Source: an uncultured virus (IMG/VR IMGVR_UViG_3300022555_000019)
Lineage: Duplodnaviria; Heunggongvirae; Uroviricota; Caudoviricetes
IMG/VR virus record: IMGVR_UViG_3300022555_000019
Strand: one strand, 5' to 3'
Length of the DNA: 60,328 bases
Shown: positions 2,654 to 48,252 of the stretch, in pieces
Layout: each line of letters opens with the position of its first letter
Position numbering within the stretch: the first letter of the stretch is position 1
The notes under the pieces: generated by a model
What the model was told of the DNA's origin: nothing
Database searches by the model: none
Seen by the model: only the letters and a program-made list of their open reading frames with translations
Program-made: the position numbers and the translations under genes

Positions 2654-3613
2654 TTACATAGTTAAGCCACCACCTCCACCGTAAATAGGGGCTCCTTTAT
2701 CATCAACAGTACCACCGCAGTCTGAACAAGAATTCCCGTCTTCGGTTCCATCAGCGGAATCAATAAAAGATGATGTTCCGCCCTTCAATTCTCCAGGGCT
2801 TTTTACGTCATTTGGTGTAAGAGCACCATCTTGATCCATTCCAGCACCTTTCAAAATTCTATCTACAAGTTCATCAATATCACTTTGAGTAAATCCACCA
2901 GCACCTTTACCTTGACCTTGACCTTGACCTTTACCTTGACCTTTACCTTGTCCTTGTCCTTGACCTTGTCCTTGTCCTTGTCCTTGTCCTTGTCCTTGTC
3001 CTTGTCCTTGTCCTTGTCCTTGTCCTTGTCCTTGTCCTTGTCCTTGTCCTTGTCCTTGTCCTTGTCCTTGTCCTTGTCCTTGTCCTTGTCCTTGACCGCC
3101 ATCACCATTACCTTTTTTATATTGGCGACCCTCTTCAAGAAGTTCTTCGTATATCTGTTCAGTACTCATATCCTCATATTTCATATCCAATAAAATTTTT
3201 ACTGGCACTTGAACGACTTTAGTATTCATACCATTAAGCTTAGCATTAATAAAATAATCCCCAGCAATATTCCAAAGTACTGGATGCCTTGAAAATTGCC
3301 TATCAAAATGTAACACCGCATTGTGCATAATCTCATGAATCAATACAAATGTAACTTGCTGAACAGTTAATTTTTTAACAAAATGGGGACTATAATAAAT
3401 ACTTACACCGTCCGTTGCCATTGTGGTAATTTTTGGATCATCAGATTCTACAATTTTTAATGCATATAATAACGTTGTAAAAAACCCGAAGTTTGTTAAA
3501 ATTGTAGCCATAGCTTCCCGAATCTTCCTTAATGCTGCTTTTTCAGCATGAGGATTCGCTTCCCACCACTCATTTATTTTAATCCAATTACTATACTCCA
3601 AATATTTTTTCAT
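2654..3613 (-). CDS. DUF2201 N-terminal putative metallopeptidase with Gly-Gln repeat
   Basis: TMATDG, HEIMH (HExxH), WNIAGDYFIN motifs. Confidence 0.85.
   Translation of the reverse strand: MKKYLEYSNWIKINEWWEANPHAEKAALRKIREAMATILTNFGFFTTLLYALKIVESDDPKITTMATDGVSIYYSPHFVKKLTVQQVTFVLIHEIMHNAVLHFDRQFSRHPVLWNIAGDYFINAKLNGMNTKVVQVPVKILLDMKYEDMSTEQIYEELLEEGRQYKKGNGDGGQGQGQGQGQGQGQGQGQGQGQGQGQGQGQGQGQGQGQGQGQGQGQGQGQGKGQGKGQGQGQGKGAGGFTQSDIDELVDRILKGAGMDQDGALTPNDVKSPGELKGGTSSFIDSADGTEDGNSCSDCGGTVDDKGAPIYGGGGGLTM
2904..3095 (-). repeat. Hexamer tandem repeat (CAAGGA)n, about 32 units, encoding (GQ)n
   Basis: Directly visible (ccttgt)n on the plus strand. Confidence 0.95.
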
Positions 3614-12669: not shown

Positions 12670-13294
12670 TTAATAACCTTGTTTTATAGCTTTTATTCGC
12701 ATATCAATTTCATTTTTTTCCTGCGCATATAAATTTTTAAATTTTGTTTGGACTGCCTGTGTAAGTGCATTTACTATATCATCATTAACTCTCGGACTCC
12801 ATCCACCATTAGCCATTGGGTCTTTAATTCCACCATATTTATTTATAATAGTGTGCATATACTTATCAAAATCCTGAATAGTTTGTGGAGCTGCTGGAGT
12901 TTTTGGAGCTGCTGGCTGGTGCTGGAGCTGGTGCTGGAGCTGCCGCTGGAGCTGGTGCTGCTGGAGCTGGTGCTGCCGCTTGATCTTCATACAGTTTTTC
13001 AATAGTTTCATTTAACCATTTCATATCAAAATTTTGATGAACTTTAACTTTGATCATTTCCAAAGTTAATATTCTTTCTTTAACACGAGCTTTATCAATA
13101 TAATTATTAATAGCTTCAACCAATTTTTCTTTACCATCAAGAGCTATATCAACATTCGAAAGTATCTCTGGATTTACACCAGACAATTTAACTGTTACAT
13201 TTTTTTCAATCAGCTCATACAGATCATTTTTGATCGGTTCTTTGATTCCATATTTTGGCTCTACTGATTCATTTAAACTACTAAATTTTTTCAT
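12670..13294 (-). pseudogene. Single gene frameshifted within a Pro-Ala linker (or assembly error)
   Basis: 12866..13294 reads ...APAPAPA then continues PAAPKTPAAP in another frame (12670..13011); break near 12916. Confidence 0.7.
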
Positions 13295-37867: not shown

Positions 37868-38254
37868 TTACTTTATATCAATTTCGGCACCAGTTTCTTT
37901 CAAAGCCTTCTGCAATGCATCAGCTTCGTCCTTAGAGACCCCAGATTTGATTACTACTGGCGAATTGATGGCTTCATCCACTATCACCTTAGCTTCAATT
38001 AAACCGATCCCAGTCATCTCTTTGAGCATTTTCATAAGACTCAACTTGGCTGGGCCTACTTCTCGTAAGACAACATCGAATTTAGTTTGTTCTGCAACTT
38101 CAGCGGGTTGCGGTGCATAAAAAAGACCAGTAAAAACTGGTGAAGATTGAGGTGGGTCAAGACCATACTCATCTTTTAAAATCTGTGCCAACTCGTGGCA
38201 TTCCTTTACAGTTAAGCTAACCAACTTTTCTGCAACCGCTTTTATATCTGTCAT
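37868..38254 (-). CDS. rplL: Ribosomal protein bL12 (L7/L12)
   Basis: AEKLVSLTVKE..ELAQILKDEYG; EQTKFDVVL...GL.EAK..VD...KSGVSKDEA..L.K.L.E.GAE. Confidence 0.93.
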   Translation of the reverse strand: MTDIKAVAEKLVSLTVKECHELAQILKDEYGLDPPQSSPVFTGLFYAPQPAEVAEQTKFDVVLREVGPAKLSLMKMLKEMTGIGLIEAKVIVDEAINSPVVIKSGVSKDEADALQKALKETGAEIDIK

Positions 38255-38256
38255 AG

Positions 38257-38391
38257 CTATTTATTTTTTTCGATTTTTTTCAATTTTTCTATTCTTACCT
38301 TTCTCAATGCTTCCTTGTATAATTTTTCAACATCCCTCTTTTTCCAAGGAATTCCATTCTTATTCCACCAAGAGTCATCAAAGGGGGTCAT
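38257..38391 (-). CDS. Small protein with RxxKLxxI tail
   Basis: Manual translation MTPFDDSWW...RKVRIEKLKKIEKNK. Confidence 0.55.
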   Translation of the reverse strand: MTPFDDSWWNKNGIPWKKRDVEKLYKEALRKVRIEKLKKIEKNK

Positions 38392-38415
38392 AGTTCAAAA
38401 TTATTGTTTAGTTTA

Positions 38416-39776
38416 TCAAAAATACGAATTTTTTTTATAAATTCCCAATTTTTCCAACTTTTTCTTTCGCATACGTTTTAAATCGTATTCAAAATCATCT
38501 TCTAAATAATCAACTTGATAATTTAAATCATTACGTATATAAATAGTTGGAAGTGACGGTGGGCACTGGACAAGTGATGGATTTATTTTACCAATACCAA
38601 TAACTTCATAAACCCCACCAATATGAATTTGAAAGTGATAACGAGTACGATTATTTCTAATACATTTAACTATGTCACCTACCTTAAACATGATTCAATC
38701 TTTCTAATTTTTTCCTCCGAAGGTCTTTTAAATATATTTTAAAATGTGATTCATAATATTCAATTTCCGTATCTGAATCGTTATTTATGATAATAAATCT
38801 ATAATCTACATCAGCACCTTTGCCAAGTGCATGACCTTGACCAATATCAATAACATCATAAATCCCACCAACATGAATATTGGCAAACATTTTATCATCA
38901 ATACATTGAATTTTATCTCCAACCTTAAACATCTTTCAATAATTGTTCTAATTTTCGTTTCCGCTCGTCTTTCAAATGAAGGAATTTAAAGCATTCCTTT
39001 GGAAATTTATCAACACGACCGTAATTATCATTAATTGTTATTGTATTGGAATTAGATTTAAGAACTTCATAAGCACCACCAATATAAAGTCTAATAAAAT
39101 AATATTCTTTACGTACAGAGCCTGAACCTATATATTTAACAATATCACCAGCTCGAAACGGATTAACAAGGATTCTGCACATCATTTAGTTTATTCAGTT
39201 TAAATTTACGCTCTTCATGAGTTGTATAAAAATAATCATAAACATATGGTCTCGTATCACGTAGAGAACTATCAGAACTATCAGGGTACATCAAAAAATA
39301 AATATGACTCAAAACTAAAGTTGGGCCATGCTGAATTTCCATCACATCATAATATTTTCCAGCAATAAATTCCTCTCCTGAATATTTGTAATACTTTTTA
39401 CACAAATATTTTGATTTTGTACGATTTATTGGTAAATCCCCCGTATAATAAACATTCATGATGATAATTTCTTAATCTTATTTCGCCTTTCAGTTACAAT
39501 TGGTGGCTCAAAATACTCCCAAACCCTTCTGTTTGCATCCAAATCATCATTATGCATATATTCTTGCAGATAACCGAAACCGAAATTATTTTCAATCCTA
39601 ACGACATTATGCCCAATAGACAAAATTTTATATTCCCTCCCAGCAGTATGCTCCAATATGCCAGTAAAAAGCGTAGCAAATCCTGTTGATGGAAAACTTT
39701 TAATACAAAGTAATTTGTCACCCTCTTTAACTGGATGACCTTTCCAATATATCGGATCGTGATTATTTATTCTCAT
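38416..39776 (-). CDS. Five tandem small beta-barrel-like proteins with RxxK[LI]xx[LI] tails (38416..38691, 38684..38932, 38925..39185, 39163..39459, 39456..39776)
   Basis: Shared FKVGDxVxC / GxxYxV pattern and C-terminal motif. Confidence 0.75.
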
Positions 39777-39780
39777 TTTG

Positions 39781-39854
39781 TGACCCCAGTAGGATTCAAA
39801 CCTACAGTCCCCGCCTTAGAAGGGCGGTGCTTCATTCAGTTAAGCTATGGGGCC
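39781..39854 (-). tRNA. tRNA-Arg(UCU)
   Basis: Cloverleaf, CCGCC-CUUCUAA-GGCGG. Confidence 0.9.
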
Positions 39855-40371
39855 AAATTATTAATTTTATTAAGCTTCCATTTTCTTATATCACTCTTTG
39901 TTACATACCGCCATTTTTTAATAGTAAATGAATTAAACTCATTTGCTTCGTCATTTATTAGATCAGTTTTCATCCATTTATATTCACTCGACATTAAATA
40001 CCAAACGACATCATAATTTTTACCATCAGTAACCAAAACATCAATTCCTTCGTTTGGAAAAGTGTCAATATCGTTTAGTGTTAAATAAACCCAATTCTCC
40101 ATTATAGTTTACTAAGCTTATCAAGTTTCATTTTTCTTATATAATTCTTTGTTGGAACATTTATAATCGCTTCACCAAGCAATGTTTCAAGTTTAATTAT
40201 ATCCCATAAAGATAAAGTTCCTTGATTCATAATATTGTCAACCTCAAACACTTTATTCTTTTCAACGGCTAACGATTTAATTCTGGCATAAACCAAATTT
40301 TCTTTAGTCCATTCAGGATCACGTTTTCTCATTTTTGCTGCTGTATTGATGGTAACCCATTTGACATTCAT
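39845..40371 (-). CDS. Two small proteins with RxxKLxx[LI] tails (39845..40102, 40102..40371)
   Basis: RKWKLNKI; RKMKLDKL; TATCTTTG 4 nt before ATG. Confidence 0.72.
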
Positions 40372-40394
40372 AAAGCAAAGATATCACAAAAAAA

Positions 40395-41039
40395 TTATAA
40401 ATCAAATCTTTGTTGAATTTTTTTCTTATTATATTCCTTCATTTCTTTTTCAATTGTAAAATTAACGAATGTTGCATCTCCACCAACCCATGTGTACCCG
40501 TCAGGCATCATATTTATAGGTTCCCAGTCAGCAGAAAGATTTGTTTTACGAATATAATGCTGCCCAGAATTGTCAGTTAAAACTTTATAGCCAATTCCAA
40601 CTTTGAACTTAGACTTAGATTCTGTGCAAGTAACTGTGCCACTTTGTGTATGCGCTGGAGATAAGAAGTTATTTAAAAATTGTAGTTCCTTAAGTCTTTT
40701 ATATAATTTATCATATTCTGGTTTCAAATCCGCTTTCAAAAATTCATACCCACCTTTCCAATCACCACCAAGTCTAACACTTGGTTTCTTTGGCAATATA
40801 AATTTACCAACACTGGAGCCATTCTCATCCCACTCAATATAACAATCAGAACCAGTCTTAACAACAGTTCCGCTTTGACCTTTTTTATAAATAACCCGTT
40901 CACCATTATTCAAATGACCACCAGAATTCACTAACTCATTTATTTTAAAAAAAATGTCACTAATTTCTTCAGTAAGGTCATCCTTTATAACATCAAAAGA
41001 ATCAGCACGGCTTTCATTATATTTTCTCAAATATTTCAT
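40395..41039 (-). CDS. CTS-like/FDL-tail protein
   Basis: MKYLRKYNES...QQRFDL. Confidence 0.78.
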   Translation of the reverse strand: MKYLRKYNESRADSFDVIKDDLTEEISDIFFKINELVNSGGHLNNGERVIYKKGQSGTVVKTGSDCYIEWDENGSSVGKFILPKKPSVRLGGDWKGGYEFLKADLKPEYDKLYKRLKELQFLNNFLSPAHTQSGTVTCTESKSKFKVGIGYKVLTDNSGQHYIRKTNLSADWEPINMMPDGYTWVGGDATFVNFTIEKEMKEYNKKKIQQRFDL

Positions 41040-41077
41040 TGATCTATATATTAAATTCAATAATTAATATATAATTT

Positions 41078-42173
41078 ATGATCAATATAAAAACATTCGA
41101 GCAAAATAAAACTGGTGAAGGTTTTTTCAAAGGTATGGACGACCCATATCTTTATCCAAAAAGATCATTCATGAAAAAAGTTTGCTATGCAACTGGATTC
41201 GTTTATAAAAGAAGATTTGAACGAACAGAAAATATATTTCTAATTGGCTCAAAATCTTCATTAGAAATAGATAGTTGGGGCGGAAATGCTGGGTCATTCA
41301 ATATTATTATTAATACACGTAGTGAATATGTTGATATATGCTTTAATGAAAATAACGGTAGTTTATCTAATAATAATAAAAAAGTTATTGATGAAGCAAA
41401 GATGATAGTTCAACTAATGAAAAATTATCCAAATTGGTCACAATATATGAGATGTGATACTCACCAATGTGCAAATTTTACAACTATTTATGCACATGTG
41501 TGGAAATTAAACATGAATAACTATTGGGAAGATTTATTAAATTATTTAACCCCAGATAAATTTAGAAAAATAATATCCTTCAAACAATTTGATCTATGAT
41601 AACAAAATTTAAACTATTTGAATCTGATGAAGTCATACTGGCTAAGTGCATAGATACTGGTAGAATGAAAAATATTAAAATAGGTGATTTATTTCAAGTT
41701 GCTTGGCATCATGATATAGGCTGGTATTTAACTGATATAAATAAAGGTGAACAAAAACATTATGAAGTTGAACCACTCCCGTATAGAGATGGTGGTAATA
41801 GTAAAATTTGGGGTGCAATATTTTCAACAGTTGACGATTCCATGGAAGACTATAAAAAACGATTGAGAGAAGAACAATTTGATCTATGATAACAAAATTT
41901 AAACTATTCGAAAATAATTTTATTGATGATGTATCAACTTGGAAAGAAGGAGATTTCGTATGTTGTATTAATAATGAAAAACAAGAATGGTTAACTATTG
42001 GAAAACCTTATAGAATAGATAAAATAGAATTTGGGGGAATTAATAAAATTATGGGTATCCAAACAGTAACTACTATCGATATCGAATTAACTTCTGGCGG
42101 ATTTGTTACACTTAACGCAAACAGATTTACTAAAGACCCACAGAAAATAAAAGAATACCAATTTGATCTATGA
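41078..42173 (+). CDS. Three coupled CTS-like/FDL-tail proteins (41078..41599, 41596..41889, 41886..42173)
   Basis: MINIKTFE / MITKFKLFE starts, QFDL ends, ATGA overlaps. Confidence 0.8.
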
Positions 42174-42245
42174 GGCTCCACTCAGGGTCGAACTGAGAAC
42201 ACAAGATTACGAATCATGCATTTTACCTGTTAAAACTATAAAGCC
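42173..42245 (-). tRNA. tRNA-Thr(CGU)
   Basis: Cloverleaf, loop UUCGUAA. Confidence 0.8.
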
Positions 42246-42249
42246 ATTG

Positions 42250-42420
42250 TGGAGTAGGCGGGAATCGAACCCGTAGCGTTCTGACCAATCAATGCGCTTC
42301 CCTTGCTTGTTATTTTACACCCACCTTAAAAAAAAAGGTCGCTATAGGTGCTTCTGCAACTTGGTATCAGATGGTGGCTTCATTGGCAACCGCAGCCGTC
42401 CGTTGTCTGCGTTCTACCCC
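42250..42420 (-). ncRNA. 171-nt tRNA-like RNA with Ala-type acceptor stem
   Basis: GGGGUAG/CUACUCC-A (G3.U70) and T-arm CGGG-UUCGAUU-CCCG; no normal anticodon arm. Confidence 0.7.
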
Positions 42421-42428
42421 AATTAATG

Positions 42429-42502
42429 TATTCCCGACAGGACTTGAACCTGTGATCTTCACTACGTCAAAGTGATATGTTAGCCACCTACACCACGAGA
42501 AT
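42429..42502 (-). tRNA. tRNA-Val(GAC)
   Basis: UCACU-UUGACGU-AGUGA. Confidence 0.85.
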
Positions 42503-42507
42503 ATGTA

Positions 42508-42586
42508 GCCGTAATCCTTGTGTAGCGTAGGGTCTTAACCCCTCAAACGGCTTCACCAGGCAGTGAACGTTCCGCTACATTACGGC
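42508..42586 (-). ncRNA. Structured three-way-junction RNA
   Basis: GCCGUAAU/AUUACGGC, GUAGCG/CGCUAC, UUCAC/GUGAA and AGGG/CCCU helices. Confidence 0.6.
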
Positions 42587-42588
42587 AG

Positions 42589-42662
42589 TGCAACTGGAAG
42601 GATTCGAACCTTCGCTGACATAGGATGTAAACCTATCGCTCTTCACACTGAGCTACAGTTGC
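42589..42662 (-). tRNA. tRNA-Val(UAC)
   Basis: AUAGG-UUUACAU-CCUAU. Confidence 0.88.
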
Positions 42663-42678
42663 ATGATAATATAAACTT

Positions 42679-42753
42679 TGGAGCAATAGGAGAATTTTCA
42701 AATCTCGACCCTAAGTTTGGAAAACTTATGCTCTGGCTCTGAGCTACTATTGC
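42679..42753 (-). tRNA. tRNA-Gly(UCC), atypical T-loop
   Basis: UAAGU-UUUCCAA-ACUUA; UCCA end. Confidence 0.8.
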
Positions 42754-42763
42754 ATTTTTATTG

Positions 42764-42850
42764 TGCAGAGAACAGGAATTCAACCTGTGATCCTCCCCGA
42801 CTATCTTATGACAGCTTGCGTGGGGTACTCCTTCTCTGAGCTTTCTCTGC
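42764..42850 (-). ncRNA. tRNA-like RNA with extended anticodon arm
   Basis: GCAGAGA/UCUCUGC, D and T arms present; CCCC-ACGCAA-GCUGUC-AUAA-GAUAGU-C-GGGG replaces the anticodon arm. Confidence 0.65.
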
Positions 42851-42861
42851 ATTTTTAATTG

Positions 42862-42961
42862 AGTTGGGGGAAGGATTCGAACCTTCGCTGGTGTTATCAT
42901 TGTGTGTTCTCTTGGCTTGTTTCCTCACTACGTCACCCTTGTTTACGTAAGCAACCCCAAC
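42862..42961 (-). ncRNA. tRNA-like RNA (acceptor stem and T-arm only)
   Basis: GUUGGGG/CCCCAAC and GAAGG-UUCGAAU-CCUUC. Confidence 0.65.
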
Positions 42962-42966
42962 AATTG

Positions 42967-43040
42967 TGCAGTAAATGAGGTTCGAACTCACCCCTGAAGT
43001 TTGGAAGACTCCCATGCTTAGCCACTAACACCACTACTGC
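42967..43040 (-). tRNA. tRNA-Gly(UCC)
   Basis: GGAGU-CUUCCAA-ACUUC. Confidence 0.85.
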
Positions 43041-43043
43041 ATC

Positions 43044-43120
43044 TGGAGTCGGTGAACGGGATTGAACCGTCTCTATTTTGGCTTGGGAAGCCAATGCACC
43101 ACCATTTATGCGTCACCGAC
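43044..43120 (-). tRNA. tRNA-Gly(CCC)
   Basis: UUGGC-UUCCCAA-GCCAA; UCCA end. Confidence 0.88.
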
Positions 43121-43124
43121 ATGG

Positions 43125-43202
43125 GGGACTCAACATGCTACCAGTTACACCATAAGAACTTATCACTAAATCCTTAGAAAGATTCGAACTCTCACCAGTC
43201 CC
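43125..43202 (-). ncRNA. Circularly permuted tRNA mimic (YrlA-like order: T-arm, closed acceptor, D-arm)
   Basis: GGGACU-[GAGAG UUCGAAU CUUUC]-[UAAGGAU/GUUCUUA]-[GUGU AACUGGUA GCAU]-AGUCCC. Confidence 0.75.
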
Positions 43203-43207
43203 TTGCG

Positions 43208-43281
43208 TGTAGGTAATCGGGGTCGAACCGACTCTATTCCAGCCTGGCAAGCTGGTGCACCACCAGTTATGCGTCACCTAC
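43208..43281 (-). tRNA. tRNA-Gly(GCC)
   Basis: CCAGC-UUGCCAG-GCUGG. Confidence 0.88.
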
Positions 43282-43332
43282 AATAATACCCTTCCTAACT
43301 CCGTGTAGGGTCAACCGTAACAGTTTTAACGA

Positions 43333-43397
43333 CAGATTACCTTTTTAGAATTACAAATTACAAGTTTGTTCCTTTTTAAGTTTGCTGAACGTAATCT
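43333..43397 (-). ncRNA. CAGCAA stem motif copy 4
   Basis: AGAUUAC-GUU-CAGCAA...GUAAUCU-G. Confidence 0.7.
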
Positions 43398-43417
43398 TTA
43401 GGTTTAGATTTAAGAAA

Positions 43418-43475
43418 CAGAATACAGGTTTTCACATTTTGCAGAAGTGTGTTTTTTATTTGCTGTGTGTATTCT
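43418..43475 (-). ncRNA. CAGCAA stem motif copy 5
   Basis: AGAAUAC-ACA-CAGCAA...GUAUUCU-G. Confidence 0.7.
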
Positions 43476-43481
43476 TTATTC

Positions 43482-43844
43482 TTATATGTTTACAAATTCT
43501 GAAGTATTACCAGCATATACAATGCCTGTCATGTTAGCAGCCATCCATTTCCAATGTGAATGCTCAGCTTTATTTATTTTGGCTTCTGGTGAACCGTCAA
43601 TTGTTACTGTATAGATATCAACATCCGTTCCTGTTACCGATTTTTTGGTTCCAACAAATGTTATTTCCTCTATGCTGATGCTCAAGCCAGTTTCTTCAAG
43701 CACTTCTCTGATCAATGCAATTTCAGATGTTTCACCATCTTCAACTTTTCCACCTGGAAGTGCCCAACCAAATGGTGATTTCTTTCTTAATAAGAATAAA
43801 ATTTGTCCAATGTTATTCTTAATTATTAATACAGTTGCTTTCAT
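43482..43844 (-). CDS. Nudix hydrolase
   Basis: Nudix box [24 protein letters not shown]. Confidence 0.93.
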
Positions 43845-43893
43845 AATTTTAATTGTTTTTAGTTAATAATTTATGTAGATCATTGATTATCAG

Positions 43894-43970
43894 TGGAGAA
43901 TATGGGATTTGAACCCATCTGATGTTTTCGGTGCAAACGAAATGACCACTCGCAAGCAGTCCCATTCCCC
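43894..43970 (-). tRNA. tRNA-Ala(UGC)
   Basis: G3.U70; UUUCG-UUUGCAC-CGAAA. Confidence 0.88.
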
Positions 43971-43976
43971 ATAAAT

Positions 43977-44050
43977 TGGAGCCAAAAGACGGGTACGATC
44001 CGTCATCTCAACTTTACCAAAGTTGCGTTCTACCATTGAACTACATCGGC
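43977..44050 (-). tRNA. tRNA-Thr(GGU)
   Basis: CAACU-UUGGUAA-AGUUG; weak acceptor stem. Confidence 0.82.
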
Positions 44051-44052
44051 AT

Positions 44053-44138
44053 TGGAGCTTCCTGTTGGATTCAAACCAACGTGGACTTTCGTCTCTGGTT
44101 TACAAAACCAGCCCAATCGGTCACTATGGGAAGGAAGC
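44053..44138 (-). tRNA. tRNA-Thr(UGU) with long variable arm
   Basis: CUGGU-UUUGUAA-ACCAG followed by GAC-GAAA-GUC. Confidence 0.82.
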
Positions 44139-44143
44139 ATTAT

Positions 44144-44219
44144 TGGTCTGGGTGGTGGGTCACGATCCCACGCCCTCGTGATCCCAAATCACGAAATCTA
44201 CCAACTGATATACACCCAG
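44144..44219 (-). tRNA. tRNA-Pro(UGG)
   Basis: CGUGA-UUUGGGA-UCACG; C1-G72, ACCA end. Confidence 0.88.
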
Positions 44220-44286
44220 TTATTTCAAATTTTTACCAGTTTTTGATTCTACTGGTAAATATTGGACCTAATTTGATTTTATGAAA

Positions 44287-44335
44287 CAGAATACACTTGT
44301 TTGCATCCTTGCGTTTTTATTGCTGTAAGTATTCT
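44287..44335 (-). ncRNA. CAGCAA stem motif copy 6
   Basis: AGAAUAC-UUA-CAGCAA...GUAUUCU-G. Confidence 0.7.
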
Positions 44336-44343
44336 TTATTCTG

Positions 44344-44414
44344 TGGAAACAACCAGACTTGAACTGGACTTTCGGAATGCTAAACCGATGTGCCGCCATT
44401 TACACCATAGTCCC
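44344..44414 (-). tRNA. tRNA-Ala(AGC), possibly degenerate
   Basis: G3.U70; UCGGU-UUAGCAU-UCCGA; several stem mismatches. Confidence 0.6.
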
Positions 44415-45293
44415 AATATAAATTTTATTTAATTCATCTAATGTGATATAAATTTTAACATTAAAATTATAATATTTACCATATTTTTCATCATGAATAT
44501 CGATATTCTTTAAAAGATCATCCAACGAAATATCACATTTCTCTTTCTTTATCTCATTATCTTTTTGAAGCATCAATTGACAATTTGATGGATGTGAAAG
44601 TAACAATGGATTAATCATATTTCTAAATCCTTCAGCAACAGAAAAGATATGATCCCGACTAACACCACCTCGATTATCCCCATGATTTTTTGCTTTATAC
44701 CAACCATAGTCCTTAATTAAATTAAAATCAAATTCATCATATTTATTTAATTGAAACTTAAATCTGGCTAATGATTTATAAATTTTCAATTCTTTAGATA
44801 CTTTAAGATGTTGCTCTTTTTTATACCCATATGAACACTCAGATGAACAAAATTTACGATTCCTTTTTTTAATGTATACATCATACGATATATTTTTATG
44901 GCAGCGCAAGCAAGTGATAGGATTTAAATTATATTTTTCTATCGATTTTTCTACATGATTTTTTTCAAAGTTAAAATTTTTGTATGCTATATCCTTCAGT
45001 TTTTCTAACTTATCTTTTGAATAATATACAATTCTTTTTTTATTAGAATTTGACCTTGCACAAGAACGACTACAAAATTCATTCCGTCTTTTATTATATG
45101 GTATTTCTTTTCCACACTCACATTTTTTATGTTCTTTTACATATGAATCTTTACATTTAAGTGCCAACCCAATTGAATTTTTGGAATAATCCCTCAAATT
45201 TTTATTTACATATATATTTCGACATTTCAAACAGCAATATGTTCTATTATCATTTATTAAACATTCACACTCATCATTTTTACACCTTTTCAT
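44400..45293 (-). CDS. HNH-type homing endonuclease with Zn fingers, inside the tRNA array
   Basis: Repeated C..C/FCS..C; RDHIFSV...HPSNCQLM...N. Confidence 0.75.
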   Translation of the reverse strand: MKRCKNDECECLINDNRTYCCLKCRNIYVNKNLRDYSKNSIGLALKCKDSYVKEHKKCECGKEIPYNKRRNEFCSRSCARSNSNKKRIVYYSKDKLEKLKDIAYKNFNFEKNHVEKSIEKYNLNPITCLRCHKNISYDVYIKKRNRKFCSSECSYGYKKEQHLKVSKELKIYKSLARFKFQLNKYDEFDFNLIKDYGWYKAKNHGDNRGGVSRDHIFSVAEGFRNMINPLLLSHPSNCQLMLQKDNEIKKEKCDISLDDLLKNIDIHDEKYGKYYNFNVKIYITLDELNKIYIGTMV

Positions 45294-45371
45294 TTATAAA
45301 TATAATTTTATTTATATATTATAGCTAAATTGTGGAAAAAAGTCGTTATGAACCTTTAATACCTAAAAATT

Positions 45372-45482
45372 TGGTGGCGAGGGTAGGATTCCCACCTACA
45401 TTCGGAATCCATCGGTTTCACCCGACTGTACCGAACCTCATGTGTTTTGCATGAGTACGTCTGGTAATTTCGTCACCCCGCC
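45372..45482 (-). ncRNA. 111-nt tRNA-like RNA with very large variable arm and non-standard anticodon loop
   Basis: GGCGGGG/CCUCGCC-ACCA; CUCAUG-CAAAACA-CAUGAG; T-loop UGGGAAU. Confidence 0.7.
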
Positions 45483-45493
45483 AATTTTGTTTG

Positions 45494-45599
45494 TGGATTG
45501 GATGGGATTCGAACCCATTCGGGCAACAACTCCCGTTATCCGTTATTACCTTCGGTTTCAACCGAACTGTGGTGTCAAACCACAACAGATTCTCAACCC
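45494..45599 (-). ncRNA. Branched tRNA-like RNA with Ala-type acceptor
   Basis: GGGUUG/CAAUCC-A (G3.U70), T-arm AUGGG-UUCGAAU-CCCAU, internal helices AUCUGUU/AACGGAU, UGUGGU/ACCACA, UUCGGU/ACCGAA, CGGG/CCCG. Confidence 0.65.
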
Positions 45600-45608
45600 A
45601 AATGCCAT

Positions 45609-45680
45609 GGGCAGCGTCCGACCATTAGACTAAACGGAACTTTCGTGGTTCCCCCGCAGATTCGAACTGCATTTCCGCCC
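45609..45680 (-). ncRNA. Circularly permuted tRNA mimic (YrlA-like), second copy
   Basis: GGGCGG-[UGCAG UUCGAAU CUGCG]-[GGAAC/GUUCC]-[GUCU AAUGGUC GGAC]-CUGCCC. Confidence 0.75.
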
Positions 45681-45684
45681 TCCG

Positions 45685-45764
45685 TGACTCGAATGGGACT
45701 CGAACCCACATCTGCCTATCCGATTACGTTACTACAGTTTAGGAAACTGTGACGATACCGAGCC
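45685..45764 (-). tRNA. Rearranged tRNA-Arg(CCU): D-loop 3' of the anticodon arm
   Basis: GGCUCGG-UAUCGUC-[ACAGU UUCCUAA ACUGU]-AGUAACGUAAUCGGAUAGGCAGAU-T-arm. Confidence 0.75.
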
Positions 45765-45772
45765 ATTAATTT

Positions 45773-45855
45773 TGGTGACCCCAGAGGGACTCGAACCCTC
45801 ATCTTCCTATCCAATTACGTTACTAATGCTTAGAAGGCACTGACGATATGGAGCC
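45773..45855 (-). tRNA. Rearranged tRNA-Arg(UCU): D-loop 3' of the anticodon arm
   Basis: GGCUCCA-UAUCGUC-[AGUGC CUUCUAA GCAUU]-AGUAACGUAAUUGGAUAGGAAGAU-T-arm-ACCA. Confidence 0.75.
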
Positions 45856-45860
45856 GTTTG

Positions 45861-45946
45861 TCGAGTTGAGAGGACTTGAACCTCCAATTTCATATTGAAA
45901 CCTACTTCCGAGGTAGGGCCGCTGCCGATTACGGGTATACAACTCG
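45861..45946 (-). tRNA. tRNA-Pro(CGG) with long variable arm
   Basis: C1-G72, A73; CCUAC-CUCGGAA-GUAGG; UUUCA/UGAAA variable arm. Confidence 0.78.
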
Positions 45947-45953
45947 CTGTTTG

Positions 45954-46027
45954 TCGGGTAGATGAGATTTGAACTCACGAACACTTGTCTCCAGAACAAG
46001 CCCATATAGCCACTGTGGAACTACCCG
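45954..46027 (-). tRNA. tRNA-Pro(UGG), C at position 33
   Basis: CUUGU-UCUGGAG-ACAAG. Confidence 0.78.
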
Positions 46028-46033
46028 ATATTT

Positions 46034-46061
46034 GGGTGAGAGTGTTGGTGCACTCTCACCC
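46034..46061. other. Perfect 11-bp hairpin in tRNA spacer
   Basis: GGGTGAGAGTG-TTGGTG-CACTCTCACCC. Confidence 0.7.
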
Positions 46062-46134
46062 GTTTTATTTCAGCCCAAGATGTCAAAGAACATTGATTAT
46101 TTGCAATTTGCGAATTGCGAATTGCGAATTTCAG

Positions 46135-46209
46135 TAAGGGTGGTGGGCTACGACCCCACGAATACTGCGCCCCGAACGCAGCCCATATAGCCATCTGTGG
46201 AACACCCTT
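46135..46209 (-). tRNA. tRNA-Pro(CGG)
   Basis: CUGCG-UUCGGGG-CGCAG. Confidence 0.82.
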
Positions 46210-46235
46210 ATTTCAATATTTTAAAGAACAAAAAC

Positions 46236-46263
46236 AAAAAACCCGACTTGTGGGTCGGGCTTT
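46236..46263 (-). terminator. Attenuator-type terminator upstream of the tRNA array
   Basis: AAAGCCCGAC-CCACAA-GUCGGGUUUUUU; its 5' arm can alternatively pair with UCGGGCU (46314..46320). Confidence 0.85.
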
Positions 46264-46290
46264 CTGTGTTTCAATGAGTTTTTATGATTG

Positions 46291-46401
46291 TTAACTCTTT
46301 TTTCGACACGTATAGCCCGAACATACCACTGGTCTGCCTACTCCCGTTGTTGCGGGGGTCGCTGTGGTTGTAACTGCTGTATGTGTCCTAAAAGTTAACA
46401 T
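46291..46401 (-). CDS. Putative attenuator leader peptide (36 aa)
   Basis: MLTFRTHTAVTTTATPATTGVGRPVVCSGYTCRKKS; TAGTTTTG promoter at 46441..46448. Confidence 0.8.
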   Translation of the reverse strand: MLTFRTHTAVTTTATPATTGVGRPVVCSGYTCRKKS

Positions 46402-46554
46402 AATATTTTTCTTTTTTAATTCGTTTTTCAAATTGAGTTGCAAAACTACAACTATTTTTCTTATAAAAAAAATTCTTAACTATATATTATCAAAAAAAAG
46501 TCAAAAAATTCCGTTTTCGTATTAATTTAGTGCAAAGATACAAAAAAGTTTTAA

Positions 46555-46794
46555 TTATTTACAAAAAAGTTGATTTAATTTTTGTTTTCTTATATAAGAT
46601 TGTGTAATTATTGTAAATTCTTTTAATTGAATTGAGTATAAAGTTTCATAAAAACCTTCGTAACGTGGCGTTAATGCTATCATATCAACATATATATCAT
46701 GCATATTATGGTATATAAGAATTACTCTGAATTTTTCACCAGAATAATTTAATTTAATAATATCATTTACTTCAAGTGTTCTATTGGATGCCAC
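46555..46794 (-). CDS. Small protein with RxxKLxxL tail
   Basis: RKQKLNQL. Confidence 0.7.
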   Translation of the reverse strand: MASNRTLEVNDIIKLNYSGEKFRVILIYHNMHDIYVDMIALTPRYEGFYETLYSIQLKEFTIITQSYIRKQKLNQLFCK

Positions 46795-46966
46795 CTCTAT
46801 AAATTTTATCTATTTCTAAATCAGTGTAAGTTCCGTTATCAGTAACAATCTTTAATCCTTTCTCCTTATTTGTATTGGAGCAATCAACGCACATTTCAGT
46901 TTTAGGTAATGCTTTTAATCTACCTTCTGAAATATCCTTACCACATTTTTTACAAATTTTATTCAT
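46781..46966 (-). CDS. TraR/DksA C4-type zinc finger protein
   Basis: CKKCGKDISEGRLKALPKTEMCVDC. Confidence 0.85.
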   Translation of the reverse strand: MNKICKKCGKDISEGRLKALPKTEMCVDCSNTNKEKGLKIVTDNGTYTDLEIDKIYRGGIQ

Positions 46967-47264
46967 TTAATTTTTTTATTTTTAATTTTCGTAAATCCAT
47001 TGGATGAATAAAGTATTCGAACAATGCTGGCTCCAACGGTGTAAGTTGCGAATATACAATTTCATAATAAAATCCTTGTCGATTACCACTACCATCTAAT
47101 ATTATTACATATATATCTGGCCCCAACGAAGTTGTTGCAAAGAGGACAATTTTATATTTTTTCCAAGCTGTGTAAGATACATCTTCATTATGATTGCCAG
47201 CAATGTCGGAAAAATCTAAATAATAATTTTTTCTACAAACTATTTCATCACCTTCTTTATCCAC
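46959..47264 (-). CDS. Small protein with RxxKIxxL tail
   Basis: KEGDEIVC; RKLKIKKL. Confidence 0.7.
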   Translation of the reverse strand: MDKEGDEIVCRKNYYLDFSDIAGNHNEDVSYTAWKKYKIVLFATTSLGPDIYVIILDGSGNRQGFYYEIVYSQLTPLEPALFEYFIHPMDLRKLKIKKLNE

Positions 47265-47769
47265 AATTCTTTTTAAGAACCCACAAACTTATTGTATTGT
47301 TTATGAAATCATCCCTAAGTTTAGTTAAAGTTTCGCCAAGATAGTTTGTACCAAGCCATTTACTGCGGTCAAGGCACTCTGGGGCATCTGCATAAAATCC
47401 AATCCCCCAAATTTTGTCTTTCTTGCTACATTCAACCAATGTTGTTCCATTGGTGGCTAAAAGTTGTTTTTTTAATTCTGGATTTTGTTCGAATTTAAAA
47501 TAGCATCCAGTATAGACAACTTTCTTTGATATTTGATCCCAAGCTTTGGCATCAAAATTTTTAACTGTACGACCAAGGGCTTTTTGTTCTCTTGGGCTCT
47601 GTTCTTTCATGATCAGATCGGCAGTTTCGGTATCACCAAAGGTCATTGCTTTACAATACATCATATATTGCTCAGTACAATTGAATTTGGTACCGTTGAT
47701 ATCAACGAAATCAACTAAGTGCCAGTTGGAATATATTCCATTATAGAATAGTATAAATTTTTCGGTCAT
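47257..47769 (-). CDS. NADAR (YbiA/DUF1768) family protein
   Basis: EQYMM..KA..FGD, KALGR.V.NFD, KFEQN, LVE.S..D.IWGIG, G.N.LG..L. Confidence 0.93.
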   Translation of the reverse strand: MTEKFILFYNGIYSNWHLVDFVDINGTKFNCTEQYMMYCKAMTFGDTETADLIMKEQSPREQKALGRTVKNFDAKAWDQISKKVVYTGCYFKFEQNPELKKQLLATNGTTLVECSKKDKIWGIGFYADAPECLDRSKWLGTNYLGETLTKLRDDFINNTISLWVLKKNCG

Positions 47770-47775
47770 AATTTT

Positions 47776-48252
47776 TTATATTTTTCCTTCATAGAATTCT
47801 TTTATCCATCGAAGGTAATTCTTTTCTTGTGCTGATAAGGAGTTGATCCAAGAAATTGAATCAACTTCTATTTTATCTTTAGCTGGAAGTTGCTTGATTA
47901 ATTTTTTAAACATAGCATCACGATCATGGGTATTTAGATGTCTGGCATCTTCTTGAATACGATTATCATGATGTGCTATACATTCATCCTTATCTTCTGA
48001 AAAGTTGCAATATGATAATCCATATCCATTCAGGTATAGATGAATATTCATTGAGTCATTAAATTTACCACCAATTACTTCCCACTCAAAATAATCTCCT
48101 CCATACTGTGCTTTAACTAATTTCAAAATTTTTGCTTGAAAAAGTCCAGTATAATTGGTTATTTTATTTCCTTTATTACTTAATCGAAAAAAATAGGTCC
48201 AATATGTTTTTCCAACCTCAAGTTTATCCTTTTCGTAGCTACTTATCATCAT
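47776..48252 (-). CDS. Hypothetical protein
   Basis: ORF with TATCTTTG upstream. Confidence 0.7.
   Translation of the reverse strand: MMISSYEKDKLEVGKTYWTYFFRLSNKGNKITNYTGLFQAKILKLVKAQYGGDYFEWEVIGGKFNDSMNIHLYLNGYGLSYCNFSEDKDECIAHHDNRIQEDARHLNTHDRDAMFKKLIKQLPAKDKIEVDSISWINSLSAQEKNYLRWIKEFYEGKI

Follow-up and report, generated by a model that had tools for sequence, protein, structure and literature searches.

Why phages carry transfer RNA (tRNA) genes, and how such genes are controlled, has been debated for decades. The question is raised by a locus of the uncultured virus IMGVR_UViG_3300022555_000019 (Caudoviricetes), whose 60,328-nucleotide (nt) stretch of DNA is referred to here as the window. 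The genome is AT-rich (G+C ∼31%) and contains phage-family genes. On its minus strand, Bacteroidota-type promoter boxes are followed by a 36-codon open reading frame (ORF), an intrinsic terminator, a boxA-like site and a tRNA array. An initial annotation, made from the sequence alone, had described this order and proposed that the ORF encodes a leader peptide whose translation senses the tRNAs encoded downstream. Re-reading the sequence bore out the observation, and the interpretation is supported, mainly by relatives of the locus. The unit is likely to be a ribosome-mediated (leader-peptide) transcription attenuator that gates the tRNA array and is followed by a host-type boxA antitermination site.

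The leader ORF and the tRNAs that follow it

The features on which the argument turns are as follows.

46291..46401, minus strand: leader ORF of 36 codons plus stop, with ATG at 46401 and TAA at 46293..46291; translation MLTFRTHTAVTTTATPATTGVGRPVVCSGYTCRKKS
46324..46380, minus strand: regulatory run, codons 8–26, all Thr, Ala, Val, Pro, Gly or Arg
46353..46400, minus strand: region 1, the 5′ arm of the leader hairpin, which pairs with 46346..46289 and takes in the UG of the AUG
46289..46346, minus strand: region 2, the 3′ arm of the leader hairpin, with the antiterminator strand 46329..46294 (core UCGGGCU, 46320..46314) and the stop codon
46234..46267, minus strand: regions 3 and 4, the intrinsic terminator, GCCCGAC / GUCGGGU with an A/U extension, then a U-tract
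46134..46209, minus strand: first tRNA-like gene (Pro, anticodon CGG), called by ARAGORN and not listed by the Rfam tRNA model at E ≤ 1
42172..46027, minus strand: body of the tRNA array (Pro, Arg, Ala, Thr, Gly, Val), including a gene for a 297-amino-acid (297-aa) protein and a NUDIX gene

The short ORF picked out by the initial annotation is intact from ATG to TAA and, as in an attenuator, sits behind promoter-like boxes (46540..46533 and 46448..46441). The reported run of 19 consecutive Thr, Ala, Val, Pro, Gly and Arg codons is also present. When the 111-nt ORF was shuffled 20,000 times by dinucleotides, no shuffle gave a 19-codon run in any frame (maximum 15), and shuffles of its 73-nt core likewise fell short; in all six frames of the window longer runs of these residues occur only in simple-repeat genes. 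The strand opposite the leader ORF is also open and holds a 15-residue run of Thr, Ala, Val, Pro and Gly. Elsewhere in the window, on the minus strand, one gene carries a 43-residue Arg-Thr repeat (2964..3092) and another a 22-residue Ala-Pro repeat (12914..12979).

The tRNA array extends over 46209..42172 on the minus strand, with one additional tRNA at 39854..39780. ARAGORN called 14 tRNAs at its default setting and 17 at a relaxed threshold, all for Pro, Arg, Ala, Thr, Gly or Val, which matches the 17 readable tRNAs, serving six amino acids only, that had been counted previously; Rfam adds one further tRNA (42682..42753). The array serves 25 of 35 leader residues compared with a background of 0.25 (p = 7e-9), and under simple wobble rules its anticodons read 22 of the 35 leader codons. 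The proposal that synonymous codons in the leader track the anticodons present is only weakly informative, because anticodons starting with U, G and C in each codon box read almost any codon of that box.

Terminator and antiterminator

The leader ORF forms one long hairpin, the 5′ arm of which is an (RCN)n run, with a folding energy of −36.4 kcal/mol on its own (z = −4.4). The full-length fold contains both this hairpin and the terminator (−59.9 kcal/mol, z = −5.7). The terminator recognized in the initial annotation was recovered, its core hairpin folding at −12.1 kcal/mol, or −19.8 kcal/mol with the A/U extension. Only 25 nt separate the hairpin from the first tRNA, leaving no room for a promoter. 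Pairing of regions 1 and 2 in the absence of translation, on which default termination would depend, was found in silico as the leader hairpin 46400..46353 / 46346..46289.

The second conformer appears when region 1 is masked in transcripts that stop short of the 3′ arm of the terminator. Under these conditions 46329..46294 pairs with 46281..46250, the 5′ arm and loop of the terminator, through the segments GUGG/CCAC, UCGGGCU/AGCCCGA, GUGU/ACAC and GAGUU/AACUC, at −17.8 to −22.1 kcal/mol in the truncated transcripts. The last three of these segments, the first of them centred on UCGGGCU in codons 28–30, had been noted in the initial annotation; GUGG/CCAC extends the duplex. The core antiterminator duplex has an energy of −13.5 kcal/mol, compared with −8.2 ± 1.9 for shuffled upstream sequence (p = 0.016). 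Short ORF, matching codons, terminator, antiterminator and 1:2 pairing together reproduce the layout of the his, thr and ilv attenuators to which the locus had been likened. A scan of 38000..48000 with Rfam at E ≤ 1 returned no T-box or other curated leader family; the best leader match, to rimP on the opposite strand, was sub-threshold at 26.7 bits, the gathering score being 47.

Related units in other phages

Among GenBank phages there is no blastn match to 45600..47300, and the exact terminator pattern has no match in IMG/VR. Relatives were collected with an anchor that is independent of the leader, the 297-aa protein embedded in the array, through its homologues in IMG/VR. A unit was accepted when a hairpin followed by a U-tract lay no more than 450 nt upstream of a tRNA and a short ATG-initiated ORF ended just before the hairpin. 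Of 42 loci scanned, 24 gave units; removing redundancy left 22, drawn from 18 loci in large uncultured phages, and 21 of these are additional to the unit in the window. A six-sequence alignment was made with L006, L007 and L010 left out. The upstream NADAR-domain gene, also used as an anchor, led to relatives (L001, L013–L048) that have no adjacent tRNAs apart from one in L001, and these were uninformative for the leader. The same gene retrieved two contigs, L011 and L012, that are 99.98% identical to the window.

Eight units (in L049, L052, L053, L054, L055, L056, L058 and L210) have leaders homologous to that of the window, examples being MKNFRTNTATVATTTAPVGGRPVRLRSDVLYLI in L049 and MNNIRRNTTVATTTTAPVTGGRPAMDSGVLYLFE in L054. 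Within this class the L055 leader has four Gln codons and its array a tRNA-Gln, while the L052 leader has three Glu codons and its first tRNA is a tRNA-Glu. A public 735-kilobase (kb) uncultured-phage record, LR756501, carries the same class before Arg, Thr, Val, Ala, Gly and Pro tRNAs. Further leaders, very dissimilar peptides of the Gln/Pro/His, Asp/Glu/Val/Leu/Ala/Trp, Asn/Lys/Phe and Leu/Cys types, precede other sets: MKNLNNIQQQPQQHPQMSERGSYV stands ahead of Pro, Pro, His and Gln tRNAs; MKNLLETLLVAMVADLLWLDAEDMLCDVG ahead of Asp, Glu, Val, Leu, Ala and Trp tRNAs; MFTINNRRGMKPGFNPAKPRCFFLRPCL ahead of Gly, Ala, Asn, Phe, Lys and Pro tRNAs; and MKKMSLCLCLLLPGCSQSRLNGIFLHK ahead of five tRNAs, four for Leu and one for Cys, the Leu codons of this leader (TTA, TTG, CTA and CTC) corresponding to the four anticodons present. 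L057, L068, L007 and L073 each contain two units. In the relatives the unit is 5–290 nt from its boxA and tRNAs, with no promoter between, and the same promoter boxes as in the window are present.

Averaged over the 22 units, a fraction of 0.544 of the leader residues is served by the tRNAs of the same unit, compared with 0.31 ± 0.03 after permutation of the pairings, and none of 20,000 permutations reached the observed value. Per-unit binomial p values against the amino-acid usage of the loci range from 7e-9 to 0.06. When leaders and arrays of nine class representatives were paired in all ways, the true pairing alone (1/362,880) attained the observed value, at both the amino-acid and the codon level, and in 9/9 representatives the own leader was the best one for its array. 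Of the codons for served amino acids, 321/366 are read by an anticodon that is present. The match is specific to the reading frame: the ATG frame gives 366/661 matches, the two shifted frames 151 and 142, and the ATG frame is the best in 22/22 units, which argues for translation and against base composition as the cause.

The 3′ part of the leader is complementary to the 5′ arm of the terminator beyond the level of shuffled sequences in 19/22 units (combined p = 2e-21), and the complementary segment always lies 0–30 nt before the stop codon. The terminator arms themselves vary among units (CCCGAC, UCCGAG, CCCGG, CGCCUUGGAC, GCUCGAUGU and UCUCAUCC), and the antiterminator covaries with these differing sequences. 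In silico, the ribosome-free fold keeps the terminator in 19/22 units. Frame and antiterminator, the conservation of which in relatives had been put forward as a check on the initial proposal, are both conserved.

Promoter candidates and boxA-like sites

Four further features flank the leader and terminator.

46533..46565, minus strand: best promoter candidate, of Bacteroidota type, with TTTG at 46565..46562, a 21-nt spacer and TATCTTTG at 46540..46533
46441..46448, minus strand: second −7-like box, TAGTTTTG, the promoter of the initial annotation
46221..46230, minus strand: boxA-like site 1, TGTTCTTTAA, directly after the U-tract
46075..46092, minus strand: boxA-like site 2, TGTTCTTTGACATCTTGG, in the form of Bacteroidota 16S–23S spacers, with TGTTCTTTGA at 46092..46083

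The consensus for Bacteroidota promoters is TTTG/TAnnTTTG. The box originally singled out as the promoter is present, but it is the weaker of the two candidates, with no TTTG at the −33 distance. The stretch that carries both −7 boxes is AT-rich and intergenic.

The boxA-like site that had been noted after the terminator is TGTTCTTTAA. Site 2 is the fuller copy of boxA; site 1 shares only TGTTCTTTAA with the spacer form. By manual count an exact GTTCTTT[GA]A follows the terminator in 11/22 units. The motif GTTCTTTGACATNNTGGA occurs in at least 122 stretches of prokaryote genomes, and of the matches listed ∼61/80 are Bacteroidota by title. Its position was examined in 20 loci picked from the listed matches, all with Bacteroidota titles; in 17/20 it lies in the 16S–23S spacer, after the spacer tRNAs, 40–200 nt before the 23S ribosomal RNA (rRNA) and on the strand of the latter. 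This position between spacer tRNAs and 23S rRNA is that of the spacer boxA of rRNA operons, which mediates NusB/S10-dependent processive antitermination. The motif of the phage units thus corresponds to the spacer boxA of Bacteroidota and, together with the promoter boxes, points to a phage with a Bacteroidota host in which the array may be read with processive antitermination once the attenuator has been passed. Searching the literature with the boxA motif as a text string gave nothing but unrelated papers.

Proposed mechanism

The arrangement suggests how the unit may work. Transcription would begin at the Bacteroidota-type promoter and a ribosome would load on the 36-codon leader. Without a ribosome, region 1 would hold region 2 in the leader hairpin and the terminator at 46267..46234 would form; with rapid decoding, a ribosome at the stop codon would cover region 2 (46329..46294) and the terminator would again form. 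This default termination would end the transcript 25 nt before the first tRNA. A ribosome slowed within codons 8 to about 20 would instead cover region 1 and leave region 2 free. These codons are all for Thr, Ala, Val, Pro, Gly or Arg, the amino acids of the downstream tRNAs. Free region 2 would then pair with the emerging 5′ arm of the terminator, and RNA polymerase would read through, cross boxA, where it would probably become resistant to termination as in rRNA operons, and transcribe the structured, untranslated array. The tRNAs produced would relieve the slow decoding, making the unit a negative-feedback supply switch for one set of tRNAs. We infer leader translation, stalling, the kinetic choice of structure, Nus-factor binding, the natural cause of tRNA depletion, whether starvation or host anticodon nucleases, and the read-through that would result.

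A broader proposal is more tentative. It is possible, although we would not regard it as the expected outcome, that large phages of Bacteroidota keep their tRNA genes in blocks, each an autonomous feedback module with a host-type promoter, a leader that samples exactly the encoded anticodons, a switchable terminator and a boxA borrowed from rRNA operons. Such modules would gauge, by codon class, how far the infected cell can still decode the phage genes and replace the missing tRNAs, including those destroyed by host anticodon nucleases. On this proposal the leaders would form a readable record of the tRNAs that each phage expects to lose.

Several observations weigh against attenuation by the leader, or against parts of it. 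In the window leader the terminator wins at equilibrium in almost all simulated stall states, the antiterminator having a pair probability of ≤0.005 except for 0.36 at codon 12; a working switch would therefore depend on a kinetic choice between terminator and antiterminator, as classical attenuators do. Because the full-length fold pairs the start codon with the stop-codon region, ribosomes must load during transcription. Amino acids without a tRNA in the array account for 10/35 leader codons, and under simple wobble rules the GCG and CCC codons are unread by the listed anticodons. Because the hairpin sets codon position 2 opposite position 1, the Gly and Val codons of its 3′ arm are partly a product of complementarity, which accounts for part of the codon bias there. 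The first boxA-like copy (TGTTCTTTAAAA) deviates from the spacer form in its 3′ half, with AAAA where the spacer form has GACA. Among the relatives, 18/42 loci gave no accepted unit in the DNA fetched, and 3/22 units have no significant antiterminator. Where several short ORFs precede a terminator one was chosen, usually the longest, the ORF nearest the terminator being taken in L068 (159..233) and L073 (412..495). Stall positions that give the alternative pairing exist in 22/22 units, in a simulation run without a null model. Finally, extra tRNA would not relieve a stall brought about by amino-acid starvation, which leaves the feedback logic incomplete.

Alternative explanations

On the window alone the preferred explanation was a non-coding GC-rich hairpin with 'codons' driven by composition, and it was dropped after the leaders of relatives and the frame test. 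In its general form this explanation holds that the locus is a non-coding transcription unit, with its own promoter and terminator, for a structured RNA such as a decayed tRNA, a processing hairpin or a small RNA, and that the ORF is open by chance because a GC-rich hairpin lies in an AT-rich genome. The folding of the whole ORF into one hairpin, with z scores of −4.4 alone and −5.7 with the terminator, is as expected of such an RNA, as is the open opposite strand with its 15-residue run. AT-rich leaders (Asn/Lys/Phe and Leu/Cys), however, match their arrays equally well, and base composition is therefore not the cause of the match. The confinement of the match to the ATG frame throughout the 22 units and the lack of an Rfam family at the leader, where the best hit is the sub-threshold rimP on the other strand, also speak against a non-coding RNA, which we consider highly improbable. 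That the ORF is translated into a small protein with a function of its own, the hairpin being its ordinary terminator and the tRNAs being made by leaky read-through or from another transcript, is very unlikely. Peptides within a class are alike, as illustrated by MKNLL..LLW..ED...VG in five units, and the leader hairpin is stable, both of which would suit a small protein. Such a protein would not account for the shift of peptide composition from class to class in step with the tRNA set, for last codons that reproduce the 3′ arm of the terminator in 19/22 units although the arms differ, or for the boxA and tRNAs that follow within 5–290 nt across a promoterless gap.

A further possibility accepts the switch and gives it another input, namely translation capacity in general, as set by host shut-off, by the supply of ribosomes or by slow elongation from any cause; alternatively the switch would mainly time the tRNA genes within infection. 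The structural evidence says nothing on what slows the ribosome, and a candidate leader in Lak-C1 is of mixed composition. A general sensor, however, would not need a frame-specific match, which is seen in 22/22 units, and the leaders differ sharply and follow their own arrays, the true pairing being the best of 362,880. We regard this possibility as unlikely, and an attenuator responding to the tRNAs of its own array remains the preferred explanation.

Strain variation

Compared with the window, L011 and L012 show two differences each over 12,510 and 10,917 positions, both of which fall in the 3′ end of the leader. At 46301, an unpaired base, AAA is replaced by AGA; at 46292, TAA is replaced by TGA, converting a U-A pair to U-G. 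ORF, stop codon and fold are retained in both alleles. The AGA and TGA allele is the one present in contigs from each of the four freshwater or lake runs compared, and the window therefore holds the rarer form. Among the sequencing runs listed as containing the stretch there was none of RNA. One run yielded a more distant strain whose upstream protein gene carries 33 substitutions over ∼190 nt, with only 4 substitutions and 1 insertion across 46217..46555. The low divergence of the unit in this strain would fit constraint; a recombination boundary explains it equally well. Contigs in runs X2, X5, X7 and X8 share with the window only the U-tract and boxA tail (46210..46246) and the promoter stretch (46439..46474), joined to hairpins and flanks of other sequence. 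Additional units probably exist beyond the window, in this phage or in its neighbours.

Genes and repeats in and around the array

Two protein-coding genes lie within the array.

44400..45293, minus strand: 297-aa Cys-rich array protein (phrog_23051)
43482..43844, minus strand: NUDIX hydrolase gene

Homologues of the 297-aa protein lie beside same-strand tRNAs in 38/39 IMG/VR loci; in Cronobacter phage GAP32 the arrangement differs, the homologue being on the strand opposite the tRNAs. Loci with homologues comprise L002–L010, L049–L087 and L210–L212; homologues occur in phages of 350–735 kb, among them Lak phages and enterobacterial jumbo phages. Invariant residues include GWYKAKNHG, SRDH and HP.NC. 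No solved structure matches the protein at E ≤ 1, and Pfam returns only a sub-threshold zinc-finger; that it processes tRNAs or acts as a nuclease is a guess.

The array contains further tRNA-related sequence. Its spacers (45684..45294, 43976..43845, 42965..42754, 42587..42503 and 42427..42246) hold many tRNA-like pieces with T-arm motifs (GGTTCGAATCC and similar) that default ARAGORN does not call. Several of the called tRNAs are 86–96 nt long. Relaxing the ARAGORN threshold adds Pro-CGG, Arg-CCU and Arg-UCG, and allowing introns gives doubtful Ser, Cys and Ile calls. The interval from the first tRNA-like gene to boxA-like site 2 includes a (TTCGCAA)3 repeat (46127..46105, minus strand), and that from site 2 to tRNA-Pro(UGG) a strong 13-base-pair hairpin (46062..46033, minus strand); on the plus strand this hairpin precedes a T-run and scores as a terminator.

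A repeated module, GAATAAAGAATAC...GTATTCTGTTTC, in which a hairpin is followed by a boxA-like tail, occurs on the minus strand at 44344..44280 and 43481..43410, one copy after the Ala tRNA behind the 297-aa gene and the other after the NUDIX gene. In L054, at about 2830..2915, the same hairpin runs directly into GTTCTTTAAAA. The module may be a boxB–boxA-like reloading site.

Just upstream of the array's promoter, also on the minus strand, are genes for a DksA/TraR-type zinc-finger protein of 61 amino acids (46781..46966) and the NADAR-domain protein (47257..47769). In bacteria DksA acts on rRNA and tRNA promoters, and a phage copy adjoining a tRNA array is suggestive.

Significance and comparison with known systems

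Phage tRNA genes have been discussed as codon compensation or as counter-defence against tRNA-cleaving immunity, and linked to host tRNA depletion (eLife 2023, PMC10264068; Nature 2024, PMC11464382). These papers, in the portions available, concern tRNA function rather than the control of transcription, and the terms 'leader peptide' and 'transcription attenuation' were not found in those portions. In a survey of attenuators (PMC2965389) the terms 'tRNA gene', 'tRNA operon' and 'Bacteroidetes' do not occur. The initial annotation knew of no phage example, and the literature searched, with subscription journals outside its coverage, likewise contains no description of leader-peptide control of tRNA genes.

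The type of mechanism proposed here is the textbook leader-peptide attenuator; what is new is its target, tRNA genes, together with the modular tuning and the coupling to boxA. With the operon product being the sensed molecule itself, the unit would form a direct supply-and-demand loop for decoding capacity, and the presence of several differently tuned leaders in one genome, coupled to a host rRNA boxA, yields clear predictions. Should host defence systems that cleave tRNAs be part of the trigger, the leaders would act as sensors in the phage–host arms race and would offer a new handle for predicting which tRNAs are targeted.

Leader attenuators that respond to more than one amino acid are known from amino-acid operons of enterobacteria, where thr responds to Thr and Ile and ilvGMEDA to Ile, Val and Leu, alongside trp, his, leu and pheA. 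The phage unit resembles these in its short leader with regulatory codons, here predicted to be translated, in its mutually exclusive 1:2, 2:3 and 3:4 hairpins and in the terminator before the first gene; in the proposed switch, as in those operons, termination would be the default and read-through would follow a stalled ribosome. In contrast to the amino-acid operons, the phage unit would regulate tRNAs rather than biosynthetic enzymes, so that its product acts on the very step that is sensed. It also differs in placing codons for six amino acids in a single 19-codon run, in belonging to a predicted Bacteroidota phage and in having boxA behind the terminator.

Control of the translation apparatus by the state of a particular tRNA, through a choice between terminator and antiterminator, has parallels in the pheST attenuator, with its pheM leader, and in T-box riboswitches. 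Those systems control genes for aminoacyl-tRNA synthetases, whereas the phage unit would control tRNA genes. The T-box, moreover, binds tRNA directly without translation, whereas the signal in the phage units is frame-specific and Rfam finds no T-box match. As in rRNA operons, GTTCTTTGACATNNTGGA precedes long untranslated stable-RNA genes in the phage units; unlike the rRNA boxA, the putative Nus site of the phage stands behind a conditional terminator and heads viral tRNA arrays. A last difference from the amino-acid operon attenuators is that one phage genome can hold several such units, each tuned to its own block of tRNAs.

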